Positions 1-12,424 of a stretch of DNA of 12,424 nucleotides are shown here, in pieces (the stretch's first letter is position 1; each line of letters starts with the position of its first letter). Origin of the DNA: Naegleria gruberi (lineage: Eukaryota); assembly GCA_000004985.1 (NCBI GenBank), contig GG739002.1; one strand, given 5' to 3'. The position numbers and the translations under genes are program-made. Below the pieces are notes generated by a model. It was not told the DNA's origin. It was given only the letters and a program-made list of their open reading frames with translations, and searched no databases.

Positions 1-240
1 ATTATCAAATGTCAAACACTATTTAACATCATGAATAATATTTAATAATATTTAATAATAGACAAATTCTAAAAGTAAAAAGAAATATTCATTTCTATGT
101 ACACCATTTTGGAAATTAACATCATTGGGTAGATCATCCATGTTATATTTATATATTAGTTTATTAATTGTTATATTTTTTGTAATTTTATCTGCTTTAC
201 ACGCTCCTTATTTGTATTTTTATGCACAAGTATGTTTATA

Positions 241-297
241 TTTAATAATAATAATATTTAATAATATATTTAATATTACAATAATATTTAATATTTA
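241..297. repeat. aataatattt-type simple repeat in the 5' flank of the OSCA-like gene. The same family occurs at 34..60, in intron 1 (582..603), intron 4 (1545..1622) and intron 5 (2040..2122)
   Basis: The unit taataatatttaataata recurs and is near-palindromic (aatatt). Every non-coding piece of the first 2.7 kb is built from it. Confidence 0.8.
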
Positions 298-332
298 TTG
301 TAAAGAAAACTAATCCTTCAACATTTTTTCAA

Positions 333-505
333 ATGAGTATGGCTAACTATGATTTAAATGCAAGTGGTGGTGTTAATATTGCATTTGGTACTCTTGAAGT
401 TGTAATTGCTTTATTTTCTATTGTTTATTTACGTTTCCTTTTTTGGATAACTAATAGAATTAATGATAAAGTTGCAAAGAGAACTATTTCAGTAGCTGAT
501 TATTC
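333..505 (+). CDS. OSCA-like gene exon 1 (ATG at 333, ends in phase 2 before GTAAGT at 506)
   Basis: Reads MSMANYDLNASGGVNIAFGTLEVVIALFSIVYLRFLFWITNRINDKVAKRTISVADY(S). The donor is tcg|gtaagt. Confidence 0.6.
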
Positions 506-2727
506 GTAAGTTTTTAGCATTTATTTTTTAATTTATTAAATATAATTAAATTATTTAAATATTACCATATATATACTATTTAACAATAATATTTAATAAT
601 AATTAGAGTACATATTCGTGATTTACCATCAACAGAAGCAGCACATGGTAAAAAACGATTATATAAACATTTTAGTAAATTTGGTAAATTAGATAATATT
701 GCACTAGCCTTAGATTGTGGTGATATAAGTAAATCTATTAAAAAGAAAGATGAACTAATTAAGGAAATTGAAAAATGTGATATTGTAATTAGTAGAGGTG
801 GTTGTTTTGTTTTAATTGAAAAAATTAAGAGAATTTACTTTTCAATTTATTTAAATTTTATTCAAAAAGATATTGCTAAAAGTATGAGAAAGAAAGCTTA
901 TAGATGTACAGGTGATGCTTTTATTAGTATGTTATTTATATATATCTTTATATATTTATATATTTAATATTTTTAATATTTTTATATTTTTATATTTTAT
1001 AATTTTATATTTTTATATTTATTTTAATATTTATTTTATTATTATTAAAATGGTAATGAATTCAGCATTTGAAAATGAAAAGTCTAGATTTAAATGTCTT
1101 CATACATTTAATAGACCAATGATTCAGAGAATTTGTTCTAAATCTGGTACTTATTCTAAAAAGAAACATAGAATTAGAGTTGAACCTGCACATGAACCTC
1201 ATGATATTATTTGGGAAAATTTGTATGTTATTTTTAATTTAATTTTAAATATTTATTTTATATTTATTTTTATATATTTTAAATATTTTTTAGAGAATAT
1301 TCTGTAATTTCCAAATATAGTAGACGTTCAGTATCATTTTTAGCAACAGTACTATTTTCAGGTGCAGTGGTTGCAGTAGCTGTTGTTTTAGAAGTTTTGA
1401 AAAAGGACAAATTTTCAAGTATTTCCATTTCTGATTGGATTGAAAATCCTTCCTTCCAAAATTGGCAAATTTTTGCGAGTCTCGGATTGTCAGTTTTGGT
1501 TTTTATTCTTGTACAAGTAATGACCTATATTTTATATTGTAAGTTTTATTTAAATATTATTTAATATTTAATATTAAATACTTTACAATAATATTAAATA
1601 ATAATATATTACAATATTAATAGTATTATCTAATTTTGAAAAACATCGTTTTCAATTAAATGCTAAACAAAGTTTAATGATGAAAGTAACATTTGGTTCC
1701 TTCTTAACAACAATAGCCTATTTATTTGTATATTTAACATCACCGACAGTTGGCAGTTATTATTCTGAAATGACAGATAATAGTGTTATTATACCAAAAG
1801 GAGCATTTACAATTGGTAATGCTAATATTCCAATTCTAGTTGAAAGTTCAGCATGGTACAGTTCATTATTTTTTGTAACATGTACAAGTGTTGCATCAAA
1901 TACTATTAAGGATGCCTTATTAGGAATTTATCATTATTTTTTAAAAAGATATAGAATTGCAACAAGTGTTACACAAGAAGATTTAAATAAGGCACATGAA
2001 CCACCTGTTTATTCTTATGAATGTATGTTTTTTATTTAAATTTTATCATTTTAATATTTTAATATTTTAATATTTTTTAATTTATTTTTTAATTTAATTT
2101 TAATATAAATATAAATATATAGATAGATATTCATATCAATTAAAAAATATGTTTATTGGTATTGTATTTAGTGGATTATTTCCAGTATCATTATTTATAA
2201 TAACAGGTGGATTAATGGCATGTTATTTTGTTGATAAATTTAATATTTTAAAAATTTATAGAGCTGAAGGTAAAGAAGTTGACTTGTTATCACCTACAGC
2301 ACTCAATTTTTTATCAATTGCATTTTTATTAAGATATATTTTAATGTCAATTACAAGAATTTACTTTACAATAAGTTTAAATTATGATCCATCAAATACT
2401 AGTCAACCTGTACTTTCTATTATTACTCCTTATCATATTTGTTTCTTTTCTGCATTTTTACTTTATATTATTTATTTAATTATTCATTTCTTTACAACTG
2501 GTACTAATTTTGTACAAAAATATTTTTGTTGTCCTAGATTTAGACATCCAAATTATATTACTAAAAATGGTGAAAAATCTATTAATGATTATAGAAATGG
2601 ATTTGATAAATATATTCCACCAATTGATGTTTCAAATGTTAAATATGTTTATCATGGTGAAGAATTAGAAACTGTTGATCCAAATCAAGCAAATTTACAT
2701 CCAAAAACAGCTGCACAAATTGTTTAA
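333..2727 (+). CDS. Six-exon gene for a CSC1/OSCA/TMEM63-like (DUF221) calcium-permeable stress-gated cation channel homologue, about 622 aa. Exons are 333..505, 607..926, 1066..1222, 1324..1538, 1624..2022, 2123..2727
   Basis: The spliced translation carries OSCA-family landmarks. These are an N-terminal TM helix (GTLEVVIALFSIVYLRFLFW), a YSVHIRDLP segment (compare TVLVRNVP), AFITFENEKSR (compare AFVSFKSR), the signature VEPAHEPHDIIWENL (compare APEPRDVFWSNL), and then multiple TM helices. All five introns begin GTAAGT or GTATGT and end in AG. The exon lengths sum to 1869 nt, which is 623 codons, and the phases are consistent at every junction. The stop is TAA at 2725..2727. Reading without splicing hits a stop in every intron. 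Confidence 0.7.
607..926 (+). CDS. OSCA-like gene exon 2
   Basis: The acceptor is aattag|a at 605..606. Reads (S)VHIRDLPSTEAAHGKKRLYKHF...RCTGDAFI. The donor is a|gtatgt at 927. Confidence 0.6.
937..1048. repeat. AT-only microsatellite filling intron 2 (tatattttta / tattttata type units)
   Basis: The interval contains no G or C. It is made of reiterated tatttttata, tattttat and aatatttatttta units. Confidence 0.8.
1066..1222 (+). CDS. OSCA-like gene exon 3 (carries the AP-x-P-x-DI-x-W-x-NL signature)
   Basis: The acceptor is ttcag| at 1064..1065. Reads (T)FENEKSRFKCLHTFNRPMIQRICSKSGTYSKKKHRIRVEPAHEPHDIIWEN(L). The donor is tt|gtatgt at 1223. Confidence 0.6.
1324..1538 (+). CDS. OSCA-like gene exon 4
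   Basis: There is a tandem acceptor atatag|tag|, with AGs at 1319..1320 and 1322..1323. I chose 1323 because it keeps the conserved W-E-N-L motif. Reads (L)RSVSFLATVLFSGAVVAVAVVLEVLKKDKF...QVMTYILY. The donor is t|gtaagt at 1539. Confidence 0.5.
1624..2022 (+). CDS. OSCA-like gene exon 5
   Basis: The acceptor is attaatag| at 1622..1623. Reads (L)LSNFEKHRFQLNAKQSLMMKVTFGSFLTTIAYLFVYLTSP...VYSYE. The donor is t|gtatgt at 2023. Confidence 0.55.
2123..2727 (+). CDS. OSCA-like gene exon 6 (terminal)
   Basis: The acceptor is atatatag| at 2121..2122. Reads (Y)RYSYQLKNMFIGIVFSGLFPVSLFIITGGLMACYF...HPKTAAQIV and ends at a TAA stop. Confidence 0.55.
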
Positions 2728-2799
2728 TAAAAAATAATTTAAAACTAGATCAACTCCACATTCTTCGAATAGAATTTAACATAATAAAGAGTAATTTAT

Positions 2800-3418
2800 T
2801 TATTGGAACATTTTAAATATATGAAATACATTTGGCACCAACATTTCCAATGTTATTGTCACACTAATATTAAGTTTGGTTAATTGATGTAAATCACAAA
2901 TATATTTGGTTCCTTCGTCTTTGATGTCATTTTTGCTTAGATTAAGTATTGTTAATTGTTTCAGTTGACTAATAAATTTTGCTCCTTCAATACCAATTTC
3001 ATTTGATCTAATATCAAGGCATGTCAATTGCTTCAATCCCCTATATATTGAGCACCTTCCACACCAATCCTATTATGACCAATATTAAGATTTGTTAATT
3101 GATCCATTTTACTAATAAACCTTGCTCCCTCTCCATTCATCTTACTCTCATCAACAGTATCAACAGTAATACTAAGAAAAAACTCTTTTGCTGCAATTTC
3201 ATATTCAGCTCTTGTTTCTTCTATAATATCATAAGAAAAATCAAGACTTGTTCATTAAACCAAATGCGATCATGTTCTTTTCTTTTATATTGTAACAATT
3301 GCCATTTCATTTTCATGTCACACCTCAATAACAGTTTTCTTCTTTGCACAACATTTTAACCATTGTCTTGAAACTAAAGTACAGGTCATTGCTAAAAATT
3401 TAAACTCTTCATGGAATG
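2800..3418 (-). CDS. Leucine-rich-repeat protein of RNI/ribonuclease-inhibitor type. It is 5'-truncated by the gap, has one 75-nt intron (3247..3321), and has one apparent +/-1 frameshift near 3037..3041
   Basis: The minus-strand translation gives tandem repeats of about 24 aa of the L-x-x-L-x-L-x-x-N-x-I-G-x-E-G-A type. The text reads LDFSYDIIEE TRAEYEIAAKEFF LSITVDTVDESKMNGEGARFISKMDQLTNLNIGHNRIGVEGAQYIG | (shift) | LKQLTCLDIRSNEIGIEGAKFISQLKQLTILNLSKNDIKDEGTKYICDLHQLTKLNIS...MFQ, then a stop at 2800..2802. The upstream exon reads ...FHEEFKFLAMTCTLVSRQWLKCCAKKKTVIEV and joins in frame through a GTGACA...ACAAG intron. Confidence 0.55.
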
Positions 3419-4782
3419 NNNNNNNNNNNNNNNNNNNNNNNNNNNNNNNNNNNNNNNNNNNNNNNNNNNNNNNNNNNNNNNNNNNNNNNNNNNNNNNNNN
3501 NNNNNNNNNNNNNNNNNNNNNNNNNNNNNNNNNNNNNNNNNNNNNNNNNNNNNNNNNNNNNNNNNNNNNNNNNNNNNNNNNNNNNNNNNNNNNNNNNNNN
3601 NNNNNNNNNNNNNNNNNNNNNNNNNNNNNNNNNNNNNNNNNNNNNNNNNNNNNNNNNNNNNNNNNNNNNNNNNNNNNNNNNNNNNNNNNNNNNNNNNNNN
3701 NNNNNNNNNNNNNNNNNNNNNNNNNNNNNNNNNNNNNNNNNNNNNNNNNNNNNNNNNNNNNNNNNNNNNNNNNNNNNNNNNNNNNNNNNNNNNNNNNNNN
3801 NNNNNNNNNNNNNNNNNNNNNNNNNNNNNNNNNNNNNNNNNNNNNNNNNNNNNNNNNNNNNNNNNNNNNNNNNNNNNNNNNNNNNNNNNNNNNNNNNNNN
3901 NNNNNNNNNNNNNNNNNNNNNNNNNNNNNNNNNNNNNNNNNNNNNNNNNNNNNNNNNNNNNNNNNNNNNNNNNNNNNNNNNNNNNNNNNNNNNNNNNNNN
4001 NNNNNNNNNNNNNNNNNNNNNNNNNNNNNNNNNNNNNNNNNNNNNNNNNNNNNNNNNNNNNNNNNNNNNNNNNNNNNNNNNNNNNNNNNNNNNNNNNNNN
4101 NNNNNNNNNNNNNNNNNNNNNNNNNNNNNNNNNNNNNNNNNNNNNNNNNNNNNNNNNNNNNNNNNNNNNNNNNNNNNNNNNNNNNNNNNNNNNNNNNNNN
4201 NNNNNNNNNNNNNNNNNNNNNNNNNNNNNNNNNNNNNNNNNNNNNNNNNNNNNNNNNNNNNNNNNNNNNNNNNNNNNNNNNNNNNNNNNNNNNNNNNNNN
4301 NNNNNNNNNNNNNNNNNNNNNNNNNNNNNNNNNNNNNNNNNNNNNNNNNNNNNNNNNNNNNNNNNNNNNNNNNNNNNNNNNNNNNNNNNNNNNNNNNNNN
4401 NNNNNNNNNNNNNNNNNNNNNNNNNNNNNNNNNNNNNNNNNNNNNNNNNNNNNNNNNNNNNNNNNNNNNNNNNNNNNNNNNNNNNNNNNNNNNNNNNNNN
4501 NNNNNNNNNNNNNNNNNNNNNNNNNNNNNNNNNNNNNNNNNNNNNNNNNNNNNNNNNNNNNNNNNNNNNNNNNNNNNNNNNNNNNNNNNNNNNNNNNNNN
4601 NNNNNNNNNNNNNNNNNNNNNNNNNNNNNNNNNNNNNNNNNNNNNNNNNNNNNNNNNNNNNNNNNNNNNNNNNNNNNNNNNNNNNNNNNNNNNNNNNNNN
4701 NNNNNNNNNNNNNNNNNNNNNNNNNNNNNNNNNNNNNNNNNNNNNNNNNNNNNNNNNNNNNNNNNNNNNNNNNNNNNNNNNN
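3419..4782. other. Assembly gap (1364 N)
   Basis: The interval is a run of n. Confidence 0.98.
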
Positions 4783-4827
4783 TCAATCAATCAATTACAA
4801 AAGAGAACTGTTGGTGAATATCTAGCA

Positions 4828-5199
4828 ATGGTAACACATAACAGTGGTAACAAGCATGATGAAAATAAGAATTCTTCCTCAACCAACAAAAAGAAGAAAC
4901 CACTCAAAGGTATTTCAGTAGGTGCACCACTTCCATTCTTTGGAACATGTGAACATTACAAGAATTCAAAGAGATGGTTCAGGTTCGATTGTTGTGGACG
5001 TGCCTATCCATGTGATATTTGCCATGAACTGGAATGCACTGCTCCATCTTCTGACATTATGGGTAGAAAAATGATTTGTGGATATTGCTCAAGAGAACAA
5101 GGACTTGCCCAGACATGTCACTTTTGTCAAAAGAATTTAATCAAAAAGATTTCAGAAAAAACTGGTAGAAGTGCTGCAAAAACCAAACAGCATAAATAA
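4828..5199 (+). CDS. Small CHY-type zinc-finger protein (zf-CHY, Hot13-like), 123 aa from the first ATG. The reading frame stays open upstream to the gap edge at 4783
   Basis: The text C-E-H-Y-x7-F-x-F-D-C-C-G-R-A-Y-P-C-D-I-C-H-E-L-E...C-G-Y-C...C-H-F-C matches the CHY zinc-finger Cys/His pattern. The stop is TAA at 5197..5199. There is no in-frame stop between 4783 and 4828, so the N-terminus may lie in the gap. Confidence 0.55.
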   Translation: MVTHNSGNKHDENKNSSSTNKKKKPLKGISVGAPLPFFGTCEHYKNSKRWFRFDCCGRAYPCDICHELECTAPSSDIMGRKMICGYCSREQGLAQTCHFCQKNLIKKISEKTGRSAAKTKQHK

Positions 5200-5410
5200 T
5201 TATCCTCCTTATTGCTTTACTCTTGTAATAAAAGAACAAATATTTTGAATAGGTCCTTCTTTTAAATTTTCATCCAAGTCTGAAATGTCAACTGGTTCTT
5301 GTGCCTTTAGTTTTTTTGACCTTCCACAAGTTGAACTTTTCTTATCTGAAAACTAATCTTCCACTTCTCTTTCAAGAGACTGGTCACCAGAATCAAGAAT
5401 TAAAAACGAT

Positions 5411-5695
5411 TTACTGTTTTTGACCTATTCTTGTAACAATTATATCTACTGTCTTTTCTGAGAATATCAATCCAGGGAAAACCTGCTGGTAACTTAATTG
5501 TAAACACAGAGAGTCAGAAGAGCAATGCTGTAATTGTTCAAATATGATTATTGTTCTATTGGATGGTAAAAGATGATGACCCAAAAACTTTCCAGTACGA
5601 GGTTTGTGAAATACTCTCTTTCTCTCGCGTGACTTGCTCTTGGTATAGTTCAGTAATTGGTCACAATTTTGTGTTGCTTTAAGAGTTTGATCCAA
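5411..5695 (-). other. A 94-codon open frame in the SAME frame as 5705..6379, separated from it only by the TAG at 5702..5704. It could be a C-terminal extension (through sequencing error, readthrough or an in-frame mini-intron) or a chance ORF in the 3'UTR
   Basis: The text reads ...VVQITC * KELDQTLKATQNCDQLLNYTKSKSRERKRVFHKPRTGKF.... The frame is identical on both sides of the TAG. A 30-nt GT..AG stretch (gttagaaggagttggatcaaactcttaaag) spanning the TAG is in frame. Confidence 0.25.
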
Positions 5696-5704
5696 CTCCT
5701 TCTA

Positions 5705-6379
5705 ACATGTAATTTGGACAACCGAATTGAAATCAACCCTCTCTTTGTAATAATCAATGGCAGAATATGGTAAAATTACATCTAAAGATGTATCGTCCTC
5801 ATTTCTTGCAATCATTGGTCCAATCACATCTATATCCTCAGGTTTTCCTTCGAATGAGGTGTAATTTCTGTTTGTAGAATATTGATGAGAACTTCTTTTT
5901 GTCTTTGATAATATTCTGAACTTGGGTACTGAGAGTGGAGTTTTGATTAAGGAGCATAATTGCAAGCCAAATTTGTACAGTGTAGCCTTTAAAAGATCCA
6001 GACAGACACTACAAGAGTTATTGAAAGTGGCAAACCACTCCTTAGGGAAATATAAAGTTGTTTCTCTGATATACCTTAATGCACAAGTATCTGGAATTTT
6101 TAGTGTAATGATGTCATTTTCAAGGTTGATTCTCACCAATCCAGAATGGTTAAACGGTAGGAGATATTTAATTACTTCATTTGAACTTCTTCCAGTCAAA
6201 ACACCACGATTTTCATCTTTTTCCAAACCAAACCAATTAGGGAATGAGAAAATAATGACCAATTTTTCTAATAGCTTCTCCTTTAAAGGTGTTTTCATGC
6301 TAATAGTGAGGAGCTGTTTTAACATGTTCTGTTGTTTGGTCCTGTAAATGTTATATGCACTATCGAGTGTGTCTAGCAA
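5705..6379 (-). CDS. Hypothetical protein ORF. It is either the downstream exon(s) of the 6475..6947 gene or a separate tandem gene starting at the ATG on the minus strand at 6323..6325. It ends at TAG (5702..5704)
   Basis: It is a 225-codon open frame with protein-like composition (…LVIIFSFPNWFGLEKDENRGVLTGRSSNEVIKYLLPF…DTCALRYIRETTLYFPKEWF…). I recognise no domain. A possible phase-0 intron, aag|GTGTTG (donor at 6531) … caacAG| (acceptor at 6329), would join it to the upstream ORF, but this is unverified. Confidence 0.4.
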
Positions 6380-6474
6380 TAATTGTTATGGGAAGACTTG
6401 AATGGTTCCTTAGTTCTAGTAAGAAGTATAGCATGTTCTTAGGCGTTCCTGAAAGATCTTCTTCAATTTTGCTT

Positions 6475-6947
6475 TTAAATTGTTTGGCCTTCTATTTGTA
6501 ATTCTGTCCATTTTAAAACAATATTCAACACCTTCTGAACTCGTTCTGCAGAAAAGGATGGCAATGGAGGGCAAGCAATAGAATCAAACTGACTCTTTCC
6601 TTGGATGTCATCATTTCCCAACGCACTTGTTCCTGTAAGTATCATCTTTACATTATTCGAGCAGGGTGATATGGAATAAAGTACCTTTAAGAATTGATGG
6701 TAATCTTCCATTAGTAATTGGCAATCATCTATATGAAAAAATAATAAAGCATCCTTCCCTAAAACTTTACTTTCTCTGAAAAGGTTTCCTTCTGGATTTG
6801 TTACGATTATTCTTTTGTTTGTTTGGCTAAACTGGGGTAAATAATTAATGGTTGAACCAAAAAATTGATGCCATCCACTTGCAGAATTCAGGAATCCAGA
6901 AATACTCGGGCTTATTAGTACTTGATAAACATTAGGGAACAATTTTG
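6475..6947 (-). CDS. Partial CDS whose 5' end is in the gap. It carries a degenerate AAA+-like Walker-B / sensor-1 segment, of the kind seen in ORC3-, Rad17- or clamp-loader-type initiator ATPases. The function is uncertain
   Basis: The text ...KRIIVTNPEGNLFRESKVLGKDALLFFHIDDCQLLMEDYHQFLKVLYSISPCSNNVKMILTGTSALGNDDIQ... fits the hhhhDD (Walker B) … hhhhTGTS (sensor 1) spacing found in ORC/RFC-like proteins. The frame is open into the N run, with no start codon. The TAA stop is at 6475..6477. Confidence 0.35.
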
Positions 6948-7500
6948 NNNNNNNNNNNNNNNNNNNNNNNNNNNNNNNNNNNNNNNNNNNNNNNNNNNNN
7001 NNNNNNNNNNNNNNNNNNNNNNNNNNNNNNNNNNNNNNNNNNNNNNNNNNNNNNNNNNNNNNNNNNNNNNNNNNNNNNNNNNNNNNNNNNNNNNNNNNNN
7101 NNNNNNNNNNNNNNNNNNNNNNNNNNNNNNNNNNNNNNNNNNNNNNNNNNNNNNNNNNNNNNNNNNNNNNNNNNNNNNNNNNNNNNNNNNNNNNNNNNNN
7201 NNNNNNNNNNNNNNNNNNNNNNNNNNNNNNNNNNNNNNNNNNNNNNNNNNNNNNNNNNNNNNNNNNNNNNNNNNNNNNNNNNNNNNNNNNNNNNNNNNNN
7301 NNNNNNNNNNNNNNNNNNNNNNNNNNNNNNNNNNNNNNNNNNNNNNNNNNNNNNNNNNNNNNNNNNNNNNNNNNNNNNNNNNNNNNNNNNNNNNNNNNNN
7401 NNNNNNNNNNNNNNNNNNNNNNNNNNNNNNNNNNNNNNNNNNNNNNNNNNNNNNNNNNNNNNNNNNNNNNNNNNNNNNNNNNNNNNNNNNNNNNNNNNNN
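6948..7500. other. Assembly gap (553 N)
   Basis: The interval is a run of n. Confidence 0.98.
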
Positions 7501-7943
7501 AATGGGTTAAAGCACCAATGAAAATTGATGGTAAAACATTTGTAACTTGTGAACAATACATGATGTATCAGAAGGCACAATTATTCAATGATCATGAAAT
7601 GGCAGAAAAGATTTTAAAAACCTCCGATCCAAAGCAATGTAAAGAATTTGGTAGAAAAGTCAAGAATTTTGATACCAATCAATGGGAAGCCAATAGAGAT
7701 CGAATTGTTTATGAGGGAAATTATGCAAAATTCACACAAAATGAAGAAATGAGAAGAGATTTACTTTCCAGATTGGATGTTGAATATGTTGAAGCTTCTC
7801 CATATGATAAAATTTGGGGAATTGGATTGGAAGAGAAGGATCAGAGAGCTCATGATAGATCTCAATGGAAAGGTTTGAATTTATTAGGTAGAATTATTAC
7901 ACAGATCAGAGATGATTTAATTAATGAATCAGCAAAAAAGTAG
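7501..7943 (+). CDS. NADAR domain protein (DUF1768, YbiA-like N-glycosidase family). It is partial, with its 5' end in the gap
   Basis: The text MKIDGKTFVTCEQYMMYQKAQLF … KFTQNEEMRRDLLSRLDVEYVEASPYDKIWGIGLEEKDQRAHDRSQWKGLNLLGRIITQIRDDL aligns block by block with E. coli YbiA (VDGKTWPTSEHYFQAQKF … LVEHTENDAYWGDG … NRLGYLLMELREQL). The stop is TAG at 7941..7943. Confidence 0.75.
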
Positions 7944-8006
7944 AAATTTTATATTTTTCTTAAATTGCAATAAATTTGATCAATATCGAAATTTACAATT
8001 TAAAAA

Positions 8007-9316
8007 ATGGCACAAGAAAAGTATGGTTTTATTGGGAGCATTTCACTCCTGAATCAAAAATTAGAAACACGAATTATTTCTAATTATTTATCAAATTGGC
8101 AAATTCATTATGCAGTTTCGGATTGTTTCAGATATGGTACTATTGCATGTTTAGGATTAAATTTAAGTGAAAATCCCAATGAAATTAAATGTATCATTAT
8201 AAATGATAATCATAATACTAGCAAGCCTCTTGATTTAAATATATGTGAATTAGTAATTGAATTTAAAAATCATGATCCATTGAAATTTGAATGGAAACAT
8301 GTTAAACATTTAGCAATTTCAAAACAATTTCTATTCATTTGCACACATTCTAACAAATTATTTGGAATTAGAAGGGAAAGTGACTTGTATGATGAGAAGG
8401 TTAAACCATTTACGAAATGTATTTCAACTCATGGTAAAATAATTGAAAAGAATATCAATCCCTCACAACCAATAATTTCAAAGGCACCATCTTGTTATAA
8501 TATCTTTGAGATTAATACTGGTAATAATATATTATTTAATAATATTGAATTCATATCAGCTAATATGTGGGCTCTTTTTATTTTATCATCTAATGGAAAT
8601 TTATATAGTATTGGATATAATGGAGATGGAGCTGCTGCAAGAGGTATGAAAAATGTTCAAGATGTTGAATTGGGTGAATGTGAAATCAAGTTGAAAGGTA
8701 AAAAATGTCAAAAGCCAAAATTTATTAAGGTTCTTGGATATAAAAATAAGGTAGCTGCACTTACTGATAATGGAAGAATTTTTTTATGTGGAGAAGGTGA
8801 GTTGTTCAGGTATTGGAATAGTTCAATAATATTTGCAAGATGTTTTACCATTTATGGGTGAGAAATCACGTCGTAATGTTTACGCGTTTAAAGAATTAGA
8901 ATTACCTTACTATTTTACTGATATGGATTTTGATACTACTAATGGTATAACTGGATTTATTAGTGATGATAATTGTGGAATAATAATTGAAAGAGGAGGA
9001 AATGTCAGGAAAATATTTGAAAAAGATATTCAATTGAAGAATTATTCAAGAGATGATAGTGAAGATGAGGAGGATGATGAAAAAGATATTGGAAACCAGG
9101 CAGAAGAAAAGAAACTAATCAAATATTTACGTCATGCTGACTGTGATATTTTAATATATGATAATTATTCTATTGATATCAAATATAGAGGTGTATATTA
9201 TTCATACAAATTGTCAAGTCCTATTTGTTATCCTAACAATGGATGTATTTATGAATTGGCATGTGACAGATTGAATGAACTACGTTTTTGGAGACCAGAA
9301 ACTTTTATTTTATTGT
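8007..9316 (+). CDS. Two-exon partial gene for an RCC1-like repeat protein (beta-propeller type) with an acidic downstream region. The exons are 8007..8796 and 8840..9316 and the intron is 8797..8839. The gene runs into the gap
   Basis: ATG is at 8007. The repeats ALFILSSNGNLYSIGYNGDGAAARG and KVAALTDNGRIFLCGE resemble RCC1 blades. A canonical gag|GTGAGT donor sits at 8797 and an acceptor tttgcaAG| at 8838..8839. Splicing turns G-E-G into G-E-D-VLPFMGEKSRRNVYAFKELELPYYF…SRDDSEDEEDDEKD… and removes the TGA at 8859..8861. The downstream frame stays open for 159 codons until the N run. Confidence 0.5.
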
Positions 9317-10502
9317 NNNNNNNNNNNNNNNNNNNNNNNNNNNNNNNNNNNNNNNNNNNNNNNNNNNNNNNNNNNNNNNNNNNNNNNNNNNNNNNNNNNN
9401 NNNNNNNNNNNNNNNNNNNNNNNNNNNNNNNNNNNNNNNNNNNNNNNNNNNNNNNNNNNNNNNNNNNNNNNNNNNNNNNNNNNNNNNNNNNNNNNNNNNN
9501 NNNNNNNNNNNNNNNNNNNNNNNNNNNNNNNNNNNNNNNNNNNNNNNNNNNNNNNNNNNNNNNNNNNNNNNNNNNNNNNNNNNNNNNNNNNNNNNNNNNN
9601 NNNNNNNNNNNNNNNNNNNNNNNNNNNNNNNNNNNNNNNNNNNNNNNNNNNNNNNNNNNNNNNNNNNNNNNNNNNNNNNNNNNNNNNNNNNNNNNNNNNN
9701 NNNNNNNNNNNNNNNNNNNNNNNNNNNNNNNNNNNNNNNNNNNNNNNNNNNNNNNNNNNNNNNNNNNNNNNNNNNNNNNNNNNNNNNNNNNNNNNNNNNN
9801 NNNNNNNNNNNNNNNNNNNNNNNNNNNNNNNNNNNNNNNNNNNNNNNNNNNNNNNNNNNNNNNNNNNNNNNNNNNNNNNNNNNNNNNNNNNNNNNNNNNN
9901 NNNNNNNNNNNNNNNNNNNNNNNNNNNNNNNNNNNNNNNNNNNNNNNNNNNNNNNNNNNNNNNNNNNNNNNNNNNNNNNNNNNNNNNNNNNNNNNNNNNN
10001 NNNNNNNNNNNNNNNNNNNNNNNNNNNNNNNNNNNNNNNNNNNNNNNNNNNNNNNNNNNNNNNNNNNNNNNNNNNNNNNNNNNNNNNNNNNNNNNNNNNN
10101 NNNNNNNNNNNNNNNNNNNNNNNNNNNNNNNNNNNNNNNNNNNNNNNNNNNNNNNNNNNNNNNNNNNNNNNNNNNNNNNNNNNNNNNNNNNNNNNNNNNN
10201 NNNNNNNNNNNNNNNNNNNNNNNNNNNNNNNNNNNNNNNNNNNNNNNNNNNNNNNNNNNNNNNNNNNNNNNNNNNNNNNNNNNNNNNNNNNNNNNNNNNN
10301 NNNNNNNNNNNNNNNNNNNNNNNNNNNNNNNNNNNNNNNNNNNNNNNNNNNNNNNNNNNNNNNNNNNNNNNNNNNNNNNNNNNNNNNNNNNNNNNNNNNN
10401 NNNNNNNNNNNNNNNNNNNNNNNNNNNNNNNNNNNNNNNNNNNNNNNNNNNNNNNNNNNNNNNNNNNNNNNNNNNNNNNNNNNNNNNNNNNNNNNNNNNN
10501 NN
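9317..10502. other. Assembly gap (1186 N). There is one extra n at 10514
   Basis: The interval is a run of n. Confidence 0.98.
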
Positions 10503-10602
10503 TCATAAAAGACNCAATCAACCAAAATGGTTTGTGAGCGTTCAGACTGAATGTTGATGACACTTTGAAAAGATGCCGGCAAATAATTGACACAATCAAA
10601 AA

Positions 10603-12424
10603 ATGCACCTCTTATCTCATCAACACTTGTTGCATTCTTTCAAAAAGTGTCTTCTCCAACAACGCCAACAACAACAACAAATTATTCTTCTCTTACTAGT
10701 ATCGTTATTTCTTGTACTTAATTATCAACAAGTTATGGCCATAAATCCATTATCTATGAAGTTTGGTGGTGAATTATCTGCATCTATGAATGGTCATCAT
10801 TATATTTATTACTACGAAAAGACAATGTTTAATTTAATCTCCATTAAAAACAAATATGACATTTATAATGACACAATGTTATTTAATTCTACTAATTCTA
10901 CTAATTCTACAAATTATGGAACATGTAATCCAATATTATTTCAATTAGGTGATTTTAGTAGAGATGGACCTAATCTACTTTATTCTATTTGTCCTGACAC
11001 TTGGTTGACATCTGCTGTTTCAATTGTATTTTTATTGGTATATATAACTAAAATGGATTCGAATAGAAAGGAAACTAATCATGAAAATTTGAAATCTTCA
11101 ATGAAAGTAGTTCCAAATAATTCAAATATGAATTCTCCAAAAAGTCAATTGTCAAATGTTGAAAGCATTATCAATAATAATCAAGATTCCAGTGATGCCA
11201 CTTCATCTGATGGTGATAATTATTCATATTGGATTGAAAATGAATTGGAAATGAAAAAGAATGTCAAAATTCAAAAGATTTTCAACATTTTACTGAGTCA
11301 GAAATTTGTAATTGCCACCTATCTCACTTCATTCATTATTCACATTTTACTATTCATATTTTTTGGAGCTGTTGAGGAGGGAATTTACAATCAAGATCCA
11401 ATCAAATCAAATAATCAAAGAATTTTCATGGGAGATGGTGGTTTCTTTGTCTCCTCGAGGGGATGTGTCATTACCAATGCCATTACAATTATAGTAGCCA
11501 TTGAATCATTGTTTTATATTGTGGTGGAGATTGTCTTTTTAGTGTTGTGCTTTATCATTCCTAGAGATACGTGGTTTATTAAGAGAGAGACATTATTATT
11601 GACCTTATTGCAATTCTTTTCAATTATTTTATTTGCAATTTGTGGATTTTTGGTACAGGTGACCAAGTTGACTGATTTTTTTGTTCCATTTGGGTTTACC
11701 TTAATGGTTTATTCATTTACTGAGGTTGTGATATGTGTCTTGTTGCCAATATTATATTCTATAGTATTATTGAATCGCACGAAAAAGGAAAGAGTGGAAG
11801 AGTCTGAATTGGAACACTTTTTAAAAAGTAAGAAAACTTTTAATATTTTATTGGATTTTGCTAGAAGAAGGTAAGTGTAAAATTAGTTTAGTTTCTAATA
11901 ATGATTTAAAGTTACTGTCCTGAATCTGTGTTATGTTATCAAGATATTGAAAGATTTAAATTGACAAATAAGAAAAATAGAAAGCAAGCTGCACTTCACA
12001 TTACTAAAACTTATCTGAAACCAAATTCACCTCTCGAATTGAACTTTCCAAAACTTTCTCAAATGTTTGAACAAATATCCAAAGCAATTGAAACTACACC
12101 ACTATTGGAAACAAACTTTTTTGATAATATTCAATGGCATTGTATTGAGGATATGACAGATGTATTCGAAAGGTTGAAGAGTCAAAATAAGGAAGTAAGA
12201 AATATTCTAAAGCAATGGAAAGTTGCATCCCTTAATGATTTAACCACTTCTCAACAAGTTACTCTTCATAACATTACAAGCAATGATACTAATAATAATA
12301 ATAATCAGGAAGAATTGAAAGATATCAAATTGGAATCTAATCACAATTCGCCCATTCAACAAGTTGATGAGCAACAATTAACTAATTCTATAGAGAAATC
12401 AAATGAAAATATGAAGAATCCAAA
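10603..12424 (+). CDS. Seven-transmembrane receptor fused to a C-terminal RGS domain (AtRGS1-like, or fungal class-VI GPCR-like). Exon 1 is 10603 (or the ATG at 10735)..11870, the intron is 11871..11911, and exon 2 is 11912..12424 and continues past the window
   Basis: There are about 7 hydrophobic helices (LTSAVSIVFLLVYIT; FVIATYLTSFIIHILLFIFFGAV; ITNAITIIVAIESLFYIVV; EIVFLVLCFIIP; LLLTLLQFFSIILFAICGFLV; FFVPFGFTLMVYSF; VVICVLLPILYSIVLL). Then comes ELEHFLKSKKTFNILLDFARR, a 41-nt intron (ag|GTAAGT…ttaaAG|), and SYCPESVLCYQDIERFK…KNRKQAALHITKTYLKPNSPLELNF…FFDNIQWHCIEDMTDVFERLKS. These match the RGS-box blocks (FLKSEYSEENIDFW…EEYKK; AKKIYNEFI…EVNLD; [23 protein letters not shown]). Unspliced, the frame stops at TAA 11872..11874. 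Confidence 0.72.
10657..10680 (+). repeat. (caa)n / poly-Gln-encoding tract (QQRQQQQQ) upstream of the likely receptor start
   Basis: The sequence is caacaacgccaacaacaacaacaa. Confidence 0.8.
10885..10914 (+). repeat. (aattctact)x3 coding repeat that gives NSTNSTNSTN, three tandem N-glycosylation sequons in the receptor N-terminal ectodomain
   Basis: There is a direct 9-nt tandem repeat that is in frame with the receptor CDS. Confidence 0.8.

Follow-up and report, generated by a model that had tools for sequence, protein, structure and literature searches.

Very probably native, second-copy DNA in a GC-richer, gap-bounded piece of an unplaced Naegleria gruberi scaffold

Layout and gene content of the scaffold

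The present study concerns a small unplaced scaffold of the Naegleria gruberi NEG-M Sanger assembly (GG739002.1), analysed over its whole length of 12,424 nucleotides (nt) and referred to here as the window, and in particular its second piece, at positions 4783-6947, in which the 3' end of a CHY-zinc-finger gene is found together with a damaged copy of a gene resembling AAA_22 P-loop NTPases (hereafter the AAA22-like copy). In a preliminary description this piece had been set apart from its neighbours by its GC content and codon usage, and a scaffolding mis-join, a contaminant contig, a recent horizontal acquisition, and a local isochore or expression effect had all been offered as explanations. 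The published N. gruberi assembly comprises 784 scaffolds and 1,977 contigs, with 35% GC (PMC9928731 Table 1; PMC6125883 Table 1). Runs of N were observed at 3419-4782, 6948-7500 and 9317-10502, and a lone N at 10514; the two gaps described on either side of the second piece are therefore real, and the three gaps together occupy 25% of the scaffold. The N runs split the window into four pieces, and the features of piece 2 are listed below them.

1-3418: piece 1
4783-6947: piece 2
7501-9316: piece 3
10503-12424: piece 4

4783-5199, plus strand: 3' part of the CHY-zinc-finger gene (codons 4786-5196, stop 5197-5199), matching Pfam zf-CHY
5200-5208: 9 nt between convergent stop codons, the sole true intergenic spacer of piece 2
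5209-6947, minus strand: putative AAA_22-like P-loop NTPase pseudogene, heterolobosean-specific, followed by three-frame translation (final stop 5209-5211)

The content assigned to piece 2 in the preliminary description was recovered in part. The CHY-zinc-finger gene stands, with a match to zf-CHY (PF05495) of 39.9 bits at residues 41-103, above the gathering cut-off of 31.3 bits. Its annotated model (EFC35858.1 / XP_002668602.1) has 123 amino acids (aa) from the ATG at 4828, and the open reading frame at 4828-5199 of the window is 100% identical to it. The frame is already open at the edge of the gap, and the translation matches residues 338-474 of P0003 (XP_002678032 / EFC45288), a 474-aa protein encoded on a 441,990-bp scaffold, at 136 of 137 positions (99.3%). 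Because the open frame continues to the gap edge in agreement with the longer protein, the 123-aa model is an artefact of the gap; 29% of the gene, at its 3' end, is all that the window retains, and the N-terminal 337 residues or so fall in the gap at 3419-4782.

The minus-strand gene, described earlier as AAA+-like, appears instead as a decayed and unannotated AAA_22-like copy. When its homology to two proteins, P0004 and P0005, was followed, five frameshifts were located near 6477, 6385, 5990-6005, 5866 and 5414-5418, and in-frame TAG stops were found at 5702-5704 and 5353-5355, so that no intact reading frame is left relative to these proteins. P0004 and P0005 were the only two relatives detected among billions of proteins. 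The former is a predicted N. gruberi protein from a 358,576-bp scaffold that matches AAA_22 (PF13401) with 30.5 bits against a cut-off of 27, and the latter is a 702-aa protein encoded on metagenome contig L001. After frame correction, the translation shares 68% identity with P0004 over 340 aa (59-68% across comparisons) and 41% with the L001 protein over 512 aa, the latter alignment reaching position ~5335. In Pfam, neither the AAA22-like open reading frames of the window nor the frame-corrected 573-aa translation matched any family, AAA_22 included. As in AAA_22 P-loop NTPases, a Walker-B-like hhhhD(D/E) motif (LLFFHIDD) is present, followed by ILTGT. The window copy differs from these enzymes in having no Pfam match of its own, in its frameshifts and stops, and in the position of its Walker A region, since some 70 N-terminal residues, including Walker A (GTGKT, residues ~57-63 of P0004), fall in the gap at 6948-7500. 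The C-terminal region, about 250 residues long, contains no known domain, and no protein of solved structure was found to be related to it; PDB sequence searches with P0004 and P0005 returned nothing significant, and a scan of JGI metagenomes for this family found no relative. The accessions of the CHY model and of the NADAR-domain model of piece 3 are consecutive, and therefore no gene model lies between them.

On this sequence evidence the AAA22-like copy is read as a pseudogene. The gene might also be intact in the organism, the frameshifts and stops then being errors of sequencing in a leftover scaffold of low coverage, an explanation that we regard as unlikely. The scaffold is indeed small and gap-rich, with a stray N at 10514, and a second gene of a multi-copy family, the leucine-rich repeat (LRR) gene of piece 1, is likewise frameshifted; moreover, the AAA22-like copy has retained a coding-like GC content of 34%, though true non-coding DNA here has 5-20%. 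However, five frameshifts and two TAG stops in 1.7 kb are to be compared with no lesion in the CHY (411 nt) or NADAR (438 nt) coding sequences, which are 99-100% identical to their twins elsewhere in the assembly, and one of the frameshifts falls at a place where 6 residues are missing relative to the paralog P0004. In addition, no gene model was placed at this locus by the annotators. Because the coding sequences of the adjoining CHY and NADAR genes show no damage, sequencing error is the weaker alternative to decay of the gene.

Base composition

Piece 2 has the highest GC content of the four pieces, as had been claimed for it (34.5%, compared with 22.7% in piece 1, 28.3% in piece 3 and 29.5% in piece 4). 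In 200-nt windows its values range from 0.30 to 0.40 with a median of 0.345, and the corresponding medians of pieces 1, 3 and 4 are 0.225, 0.28 and 0.29. The value of 35-40% GC that had been estimated for non-coding DNA at 5200-5410 was not reproduced, since 31.8% was measured, and the stretch is not a non-coding one of the kind assumed: it is formed by the 3' part of the putative pseudogene on the minus strand, with true spacer at 5200-5208 only. Furthermore, 34.5% is close to the N. gruberi genome mean of 35% (PMC9928731, PMC6125883), a comparison that is made with the mean and not with the distribution. Because piece 2 matches this mean, it is the flanks that are AT-rich deviants, above all the OSCA-like channel gene of piece 1.

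Several differences in sequence content accompany this contrast. Piece 2 is approximately 98% coding or formerly coding, and piece 1 contains 797 non-coding nt (23% of its length) with 9.7% GC overall. The introns of the OSCA-like gene consist almost wholly of AT microsatellites and have about 5.6% GC; values of 18.7% for the spacer at 2728-2802, 12.7% for the spacer at 7944-8006 and 18.6% for the intron of the RGS-receptor gene in piece 4 were also obtained. The range of 10-20% GC that had been given for flanking spacers thus applies to pieces 1 and 3 and to the RGS intron; an exception is the stretch of 232 nt preceding the RGS-receptor gene in piece 4, whose 34% GC makes it more likely to be the terminal part of a further gene than a spacer. 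The scarcity of aatatt microsatellites, put forward as a property of piece 2, is not special to it, given that AATATT occurs 1.9 times per kb in piece 2, 2.2 and 2.6 times per kb in pieces 3 and 4, and 8.8 times per kb in piece 1; every AT tandem array of the window lies inside the OSCA introns.

Coding density accounts for a large share of the difference from piece 1 but does not account for the whole, because even coding sequence taken alone has more GC in piece 2 (34.6%) than in piece 1 (26.7%) or elsewhere (28.8 and 29.2%). The residual excess of 5-8 points is real, and it is spread over the first and second codon positions, where amino-acid composition is reflected, as well as over the third. 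Expression-linked codon bias, local mutation bias, and a young pseudogene that keeps its coding composition are candidate causes of this excess. In dinucleotide signature, a measure that is noisy at 2 kb, the distances from piece 2 to the other segments (78-167 x 10^-3) overlap those among the flanks (48-162 x 10^-3), and piece 2 is therefore no outlier; the segment farthest from all others is that of the OSCA-like gene. In composition, the true outlier of the window is the OSCA-like gene rather than piece 2.

Codon usage

Frame-consistent coding models were built for all seven genes, and the GC content at third codon positions (GC3) was derived from these models.

OSCA-like gene, piece 1: 9.5%
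RCC1-like gene, piece 3: 15.9%
LRR gene, piece 1: 20.4%
NADAR gene, piece 3: 22.6%
RGS-receptor gene, piece 4: 25.8%
CHY gene, piece 2: 27.0%
AAA22-like copy, piece 2: 30.0%

Pooled GC3 is 29.4% in piece 2 and 17.3% in the flanks (p = 9e-12). However, the five flanking genes differ as strongly among themselves (chi2 = 61.5, p = 1.4e-12), and neither the NADAR gene (p = 0.11) nor the RGS-receptor gene (p = 0.16) is distinguishable from piece 2 in GC3. The pattern is a scatter of gene-specific values, with no step at the gaps. The G/C-ending codons that had been noted in piece 2 (ctg, gcc, tgc, cag, gac and ttc) are enriched there two- to fivefold, at 8.0-8.8 per 100 codons compared with 1.6-4.1 in the flanks. 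The accompanying statement that the flanking genes use A/T-ending codons almost exclusively went too far, since it fits the OSCA-like and RCC1-like genes only and the NADAR and RGS-receptor genes resemble piece 2.

The codon usage of an orthologous locus was also available, on a 13.3-kb Naegleria-like metagenome contig from ENA (L002). On this contig the OSCA ortholog has a GC3 of 44% and the CHY ortholog 38%, and about 25-44 nt lie between the OSCA coding blocks. A conserved low GC3 of OSCA genes was considered and rejected on account of the value of 44%, from which it also follows that the AT shift of the OSCA-like gene is specific to the N. gruberi lineage.

These data bear on the possibility of a local compositional step or codon-bias effect, in which the CHY and AAA22-like pair would lie in a GC-richer micro-domain or be highly expressed, or the OSCA-like and RCC1-like genes would lie in domains drifting towards AT. 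The excess in coding GC and in pooled GC3 is compatible with such an effect, as are the increased shares of C/G-ending two-fold codons in piece 2 (TTC/TTT, for example, is 18/18 compared with 5/48 in the OSCA-like gene), the lineage-specific change of the N. gruberi OSCA-like gene relative to the L002 ortholog, which is without an AT shift, and the observation that, in related amoebae, genes with a low effective number of codons are often highly expressed (PMC11702301). On the other hand, there is no step at the gaps, where the NADAR, RGS-receptor and LRR genes take intermediate values (20-26%) that overlap statistically with piece 2, and expression-driven selection cannot maintain the GC3 of the AAA22-like copy if this copy is a pseudogene. 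We therefore consider a step of this kind possible but clearly the less probable explanation. Of the four explanations proposed in the preliminary description, only the last survives, in the form of local variation in composition and of codon usage that varies from gene to gene, and even here the direction is reversed, in that the flanks deviate and piece 2 lies at the 35% mean.

Another reading is that the OSCA-like gene has drifted to a GC3 of 9.5%, its introns having grown into AT microsatellites, 1-2 kb from genes that stay at 27-30%, while the OSCA and CHY orthologs on L002 are balanced (44 and 38%). We hold this to be improbable; if it were true, compositional divergence at the scale of genes inside N. 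gruberi would point to a sharply local mutation or repair bias or to an expression-dependent bias. Independently of this, the AAA22-like copy is perhaps an allele-specific pseudogene of an uncharacterised P-loop family of heteroloboseans. The data resemble ordinary intragenomic heterogeneity, in which coding sequence has 27-35% GC and introns and spacers have 5-20%, and in which GC3 lies between 9.5% and 30% among seven neighbouring genes; they differ from an isochore-like organisation in that the scale is that of single genes, and there was no evidence of long isochore-like domains.

Foreign origin and scaffold joins

The contaminant contig and the recent horizontal acquisition proposed earlier would both make the 2.1-kb segment a part of some other genome, and the observations that could suggest such an origin are a GC content above that of the neighbours, a flatworm protein (49% identity) as the second-best CHY match in a word-indexed search, and the lack of the AAA22-like gene at the syntenic position on L002. 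However, the CHY gene has a twin in N. gruberi with 99% identity and an ortholog with 66% identity at the syntenic position on L002, and the AAA22-like copy has its N. gruberi paralog (59-68%), with no prokaryotic, viral or other relatives found. The GC content of piece 2 equals the host mean (PMC9928731), and its dinucleotide signature is that of a non-outlier. A plasmid search with piece 2 gave no match. When the closest relatives were compared, as the preliminary description had advised, all of the genes tested (CHY, AAA22-like, OSCA and NADAR) were found to be closest to Naegleria or Heterolobosea, in disagreement with a contaminant. Likewise, relatives in a distant taxon combined with absence from the syntenic site, the pattern of a horizontally acquired segment, were not found: the CHY ortholog occupies the syntenic site in the relative represented by L002, and no relative outside Heterolobosea was detected for the AAA22-like copy. 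A foreign origin is thus hardly credible.

A mis-join, in which spurious mate pairs would have linked piece 2 to unrelated contigs, was also considered, given a scaffold of 12.4 kb with a quarter of its length in gaps and a composition that differs across them. Three lines of evidence contradict it. First, the twins of the CHY and NADAR genes are consecutive models (EFC45288 and EFC45287) on the 441,990-bp scaffold, in inverted order and with nothing annotated between them, and the copies in the window are likewise consecutive (EFC35858 for CHY and EFC35859 for NADAR). Second, on L002 the OSCA ortholog (1452-3755), whose last exon is 74-76% identical, lies 100 nt ahead of a complete CHY ortholog in the same orientation, which shares 66% identity with P0003 along its whole length. 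Third, the sizes of both gaps fit the missing parts of the genes, because CHY residues 1-337 require 1011 nt of the 1364 nt in gap 1, where the N-terminus of the LRR gene must also fit, and gap 2, with 553 nt, has to accommodate about 105 nt of the NADAR gene and about 210 nt of the AAA22-like copy (~315 nt). Both joins thus appear corroborated by independent gene adjacency, namely CHY-NADAR on the 441,990-bp scaffold for the right join and OSCA-CHY on L002 for the left, and we consider a mis-join very improbable. The synteny support for the left join comes from one close relative, L002, because no adjacency of OSCA and CHY was found in the more distant relatives, that is, on the Willaertia magna contig L003 and the metagenome contigs L004-L006. 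The AAA22-like gene is absent from L002, but a paralog of it exists in the host. A gene for a large UBA_4/ankyrin-repeat protein was also observed about 5 kb from the OSCA ortholog both on L002 (8797-12834, minus strand) and on L003 of W. magna (17476-21453, plus strand), which hints at a wider conserved synteny at this locus.

A second copy of the locus

The near-identity of the CHY gene with P0003 is matched on the other side of gap 2. The NADAR gene, of which the first ~35 residues fall in the gap at 6948-7500, is identical at 145 of 145 positions to P0007 (XP_002678031 / EFC45287), a 180-aa protein encoded on the 441,990-bp scaffold and placed in the same 90% identity cluster. The twin locus of the NEG-M assembly thus resembles that of the window in the adjacency of the CHY and NADAR genes and in having no gene model between them, and differs from it in that the window copy is interrupted by gaps, with its genes truncated to 123 and 141 aa. 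The differences between the two copies are one N/S substitution in CHY and one additional C-terminal K in NADAR, and because of these the window holds a distinct allele or copy rather than the same sequence assembled twice. According to PMC9928731, which cites Fritz-Laylin 2010, Naegleria is a heterozygous diploid. Most likely, the 12.4-kb scaffold represents the other haplotype of such a diploid genome, left unmerged by the Sanger assembly. Like known haplotigs, it is a small leftover scaffold, of which two genes have near-identical copies side by side on a large scaffold; the comparison differs from a clear case in that a recent segmental duplication would give the same picture here.

Taken together, these results make it very probable that the piece at 4783-6947 is native nuclear DNA of N. 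gruberi, in its correct genomic context and of ordinary composition, and a redundant second copy of a region of the 442-kb scaffold. Herein, we propose that piece 2 consists of the 3' end of the CHY gene converging, across 9 nt, on a degenerate copy of a lineage-specific AAA_22-like P-loop gene, and that its GC-rich appearance has two reasons. First, unlike piece 1, it lacks introns and true spacers. Second, GC3 in this region spreads from 9.5% to 30%, and both genes of piece 2 lie near the top of this spread. The finding is an ordinary one, the contrast in composition being that of coding density together with the usual spread of GC3 from gene to gene.

Several results weigh against this interpretation. 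The excess in coding-only GC described above is left after coding density has been taken into account, and the composition is called typical with the genome mean as the sole yardstick. The similar GC3 values of the OSCA and CHY orthologs on L002 (44 and 38%) indicate that the contrast between these two genes in the window is no conserved gene-specific property. In addition, the adjacency of the twins on the 442-kb scaffold is deduced from consecutive accessions and a shared scaffold size and not from the DNA, and the twins that are near-identical are those of two of the seven genes, CHY and NADAR.

The biological weight of these findings is small, and their main value is that suspicions of a mis-assembly, a contaminant or a transfer event affecting the N. 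gruberi reference can be set aside. For the annotation, XP_002668602 (123 aa) and XP_002668603 (141 aa) are gap-truncated forms of proteins of 474 and 180 aa, and the scaffold probably duplicates part of the 442-kb one, so that redundant partial models of this kind inflate the gene count. Moreover, an unannotated P-loop gene of an orphan family, probably a pseudogene, sits between the CHY and NADAR models. A more general lesson is that a contrast in GC content between short contigs can arise from coding density and the normal spread of GC3 among genes.

Flanking genes

The neighbours of piece 2 that were delimited in pieces 1 and 3 are as follows.

77-2727, plus strand: OSCA/TMEM63-like channel gene with at least 7 exons and 6 introns of ~70-139 nt; Pfam PHM7_cyt, 30.5 bits
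2803-3418, minus strand: LRR gene or pseudogene, running into gap 1; Pfam LRR_6 and LRR_8 on the frame-corrected translation
7503-7943, plus strand: NADAR-domain gene; Pfam NADAR, 170.5 bits; EFC35859.1 / XP_002668603.1, 141 aa from the ATG at 7518

In the OSCA-like gene, a further match to RSN1_7TM was obtained at 23.3 bits, which is under the Pfam cut-off. The last exon of this gene has 18 relatives only among 1.84 billion representatives, the best being the metagenome protein P0008 encoded on L002 (76% identity), and the nearest named ones being proteins of the heteroloboseans W. magna (64%) and Acrasis kona (38%). The LRR gene contains at least two frameshifts in addition to in-frame stops, and is absent from the 100-nt spacer between OSCA and CHY on L002; it is probably a decayed, lineage-specific insertion between these two genes. 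No Rfam family was found in the window. In piece 4, a short open frame on the minus strand, at 10503-10620, exits gap 3 and contains the N at 10514. In piece 3, an apparent frameshift near position 8800 of the RCC1-like gene was rejected as a disabling lesion, as it corresponds to a 43-nt GT..AG intron at 8798-8840. This intron has about 30% GC and is far less AT-rich than the introns of the OSCA-like gene.

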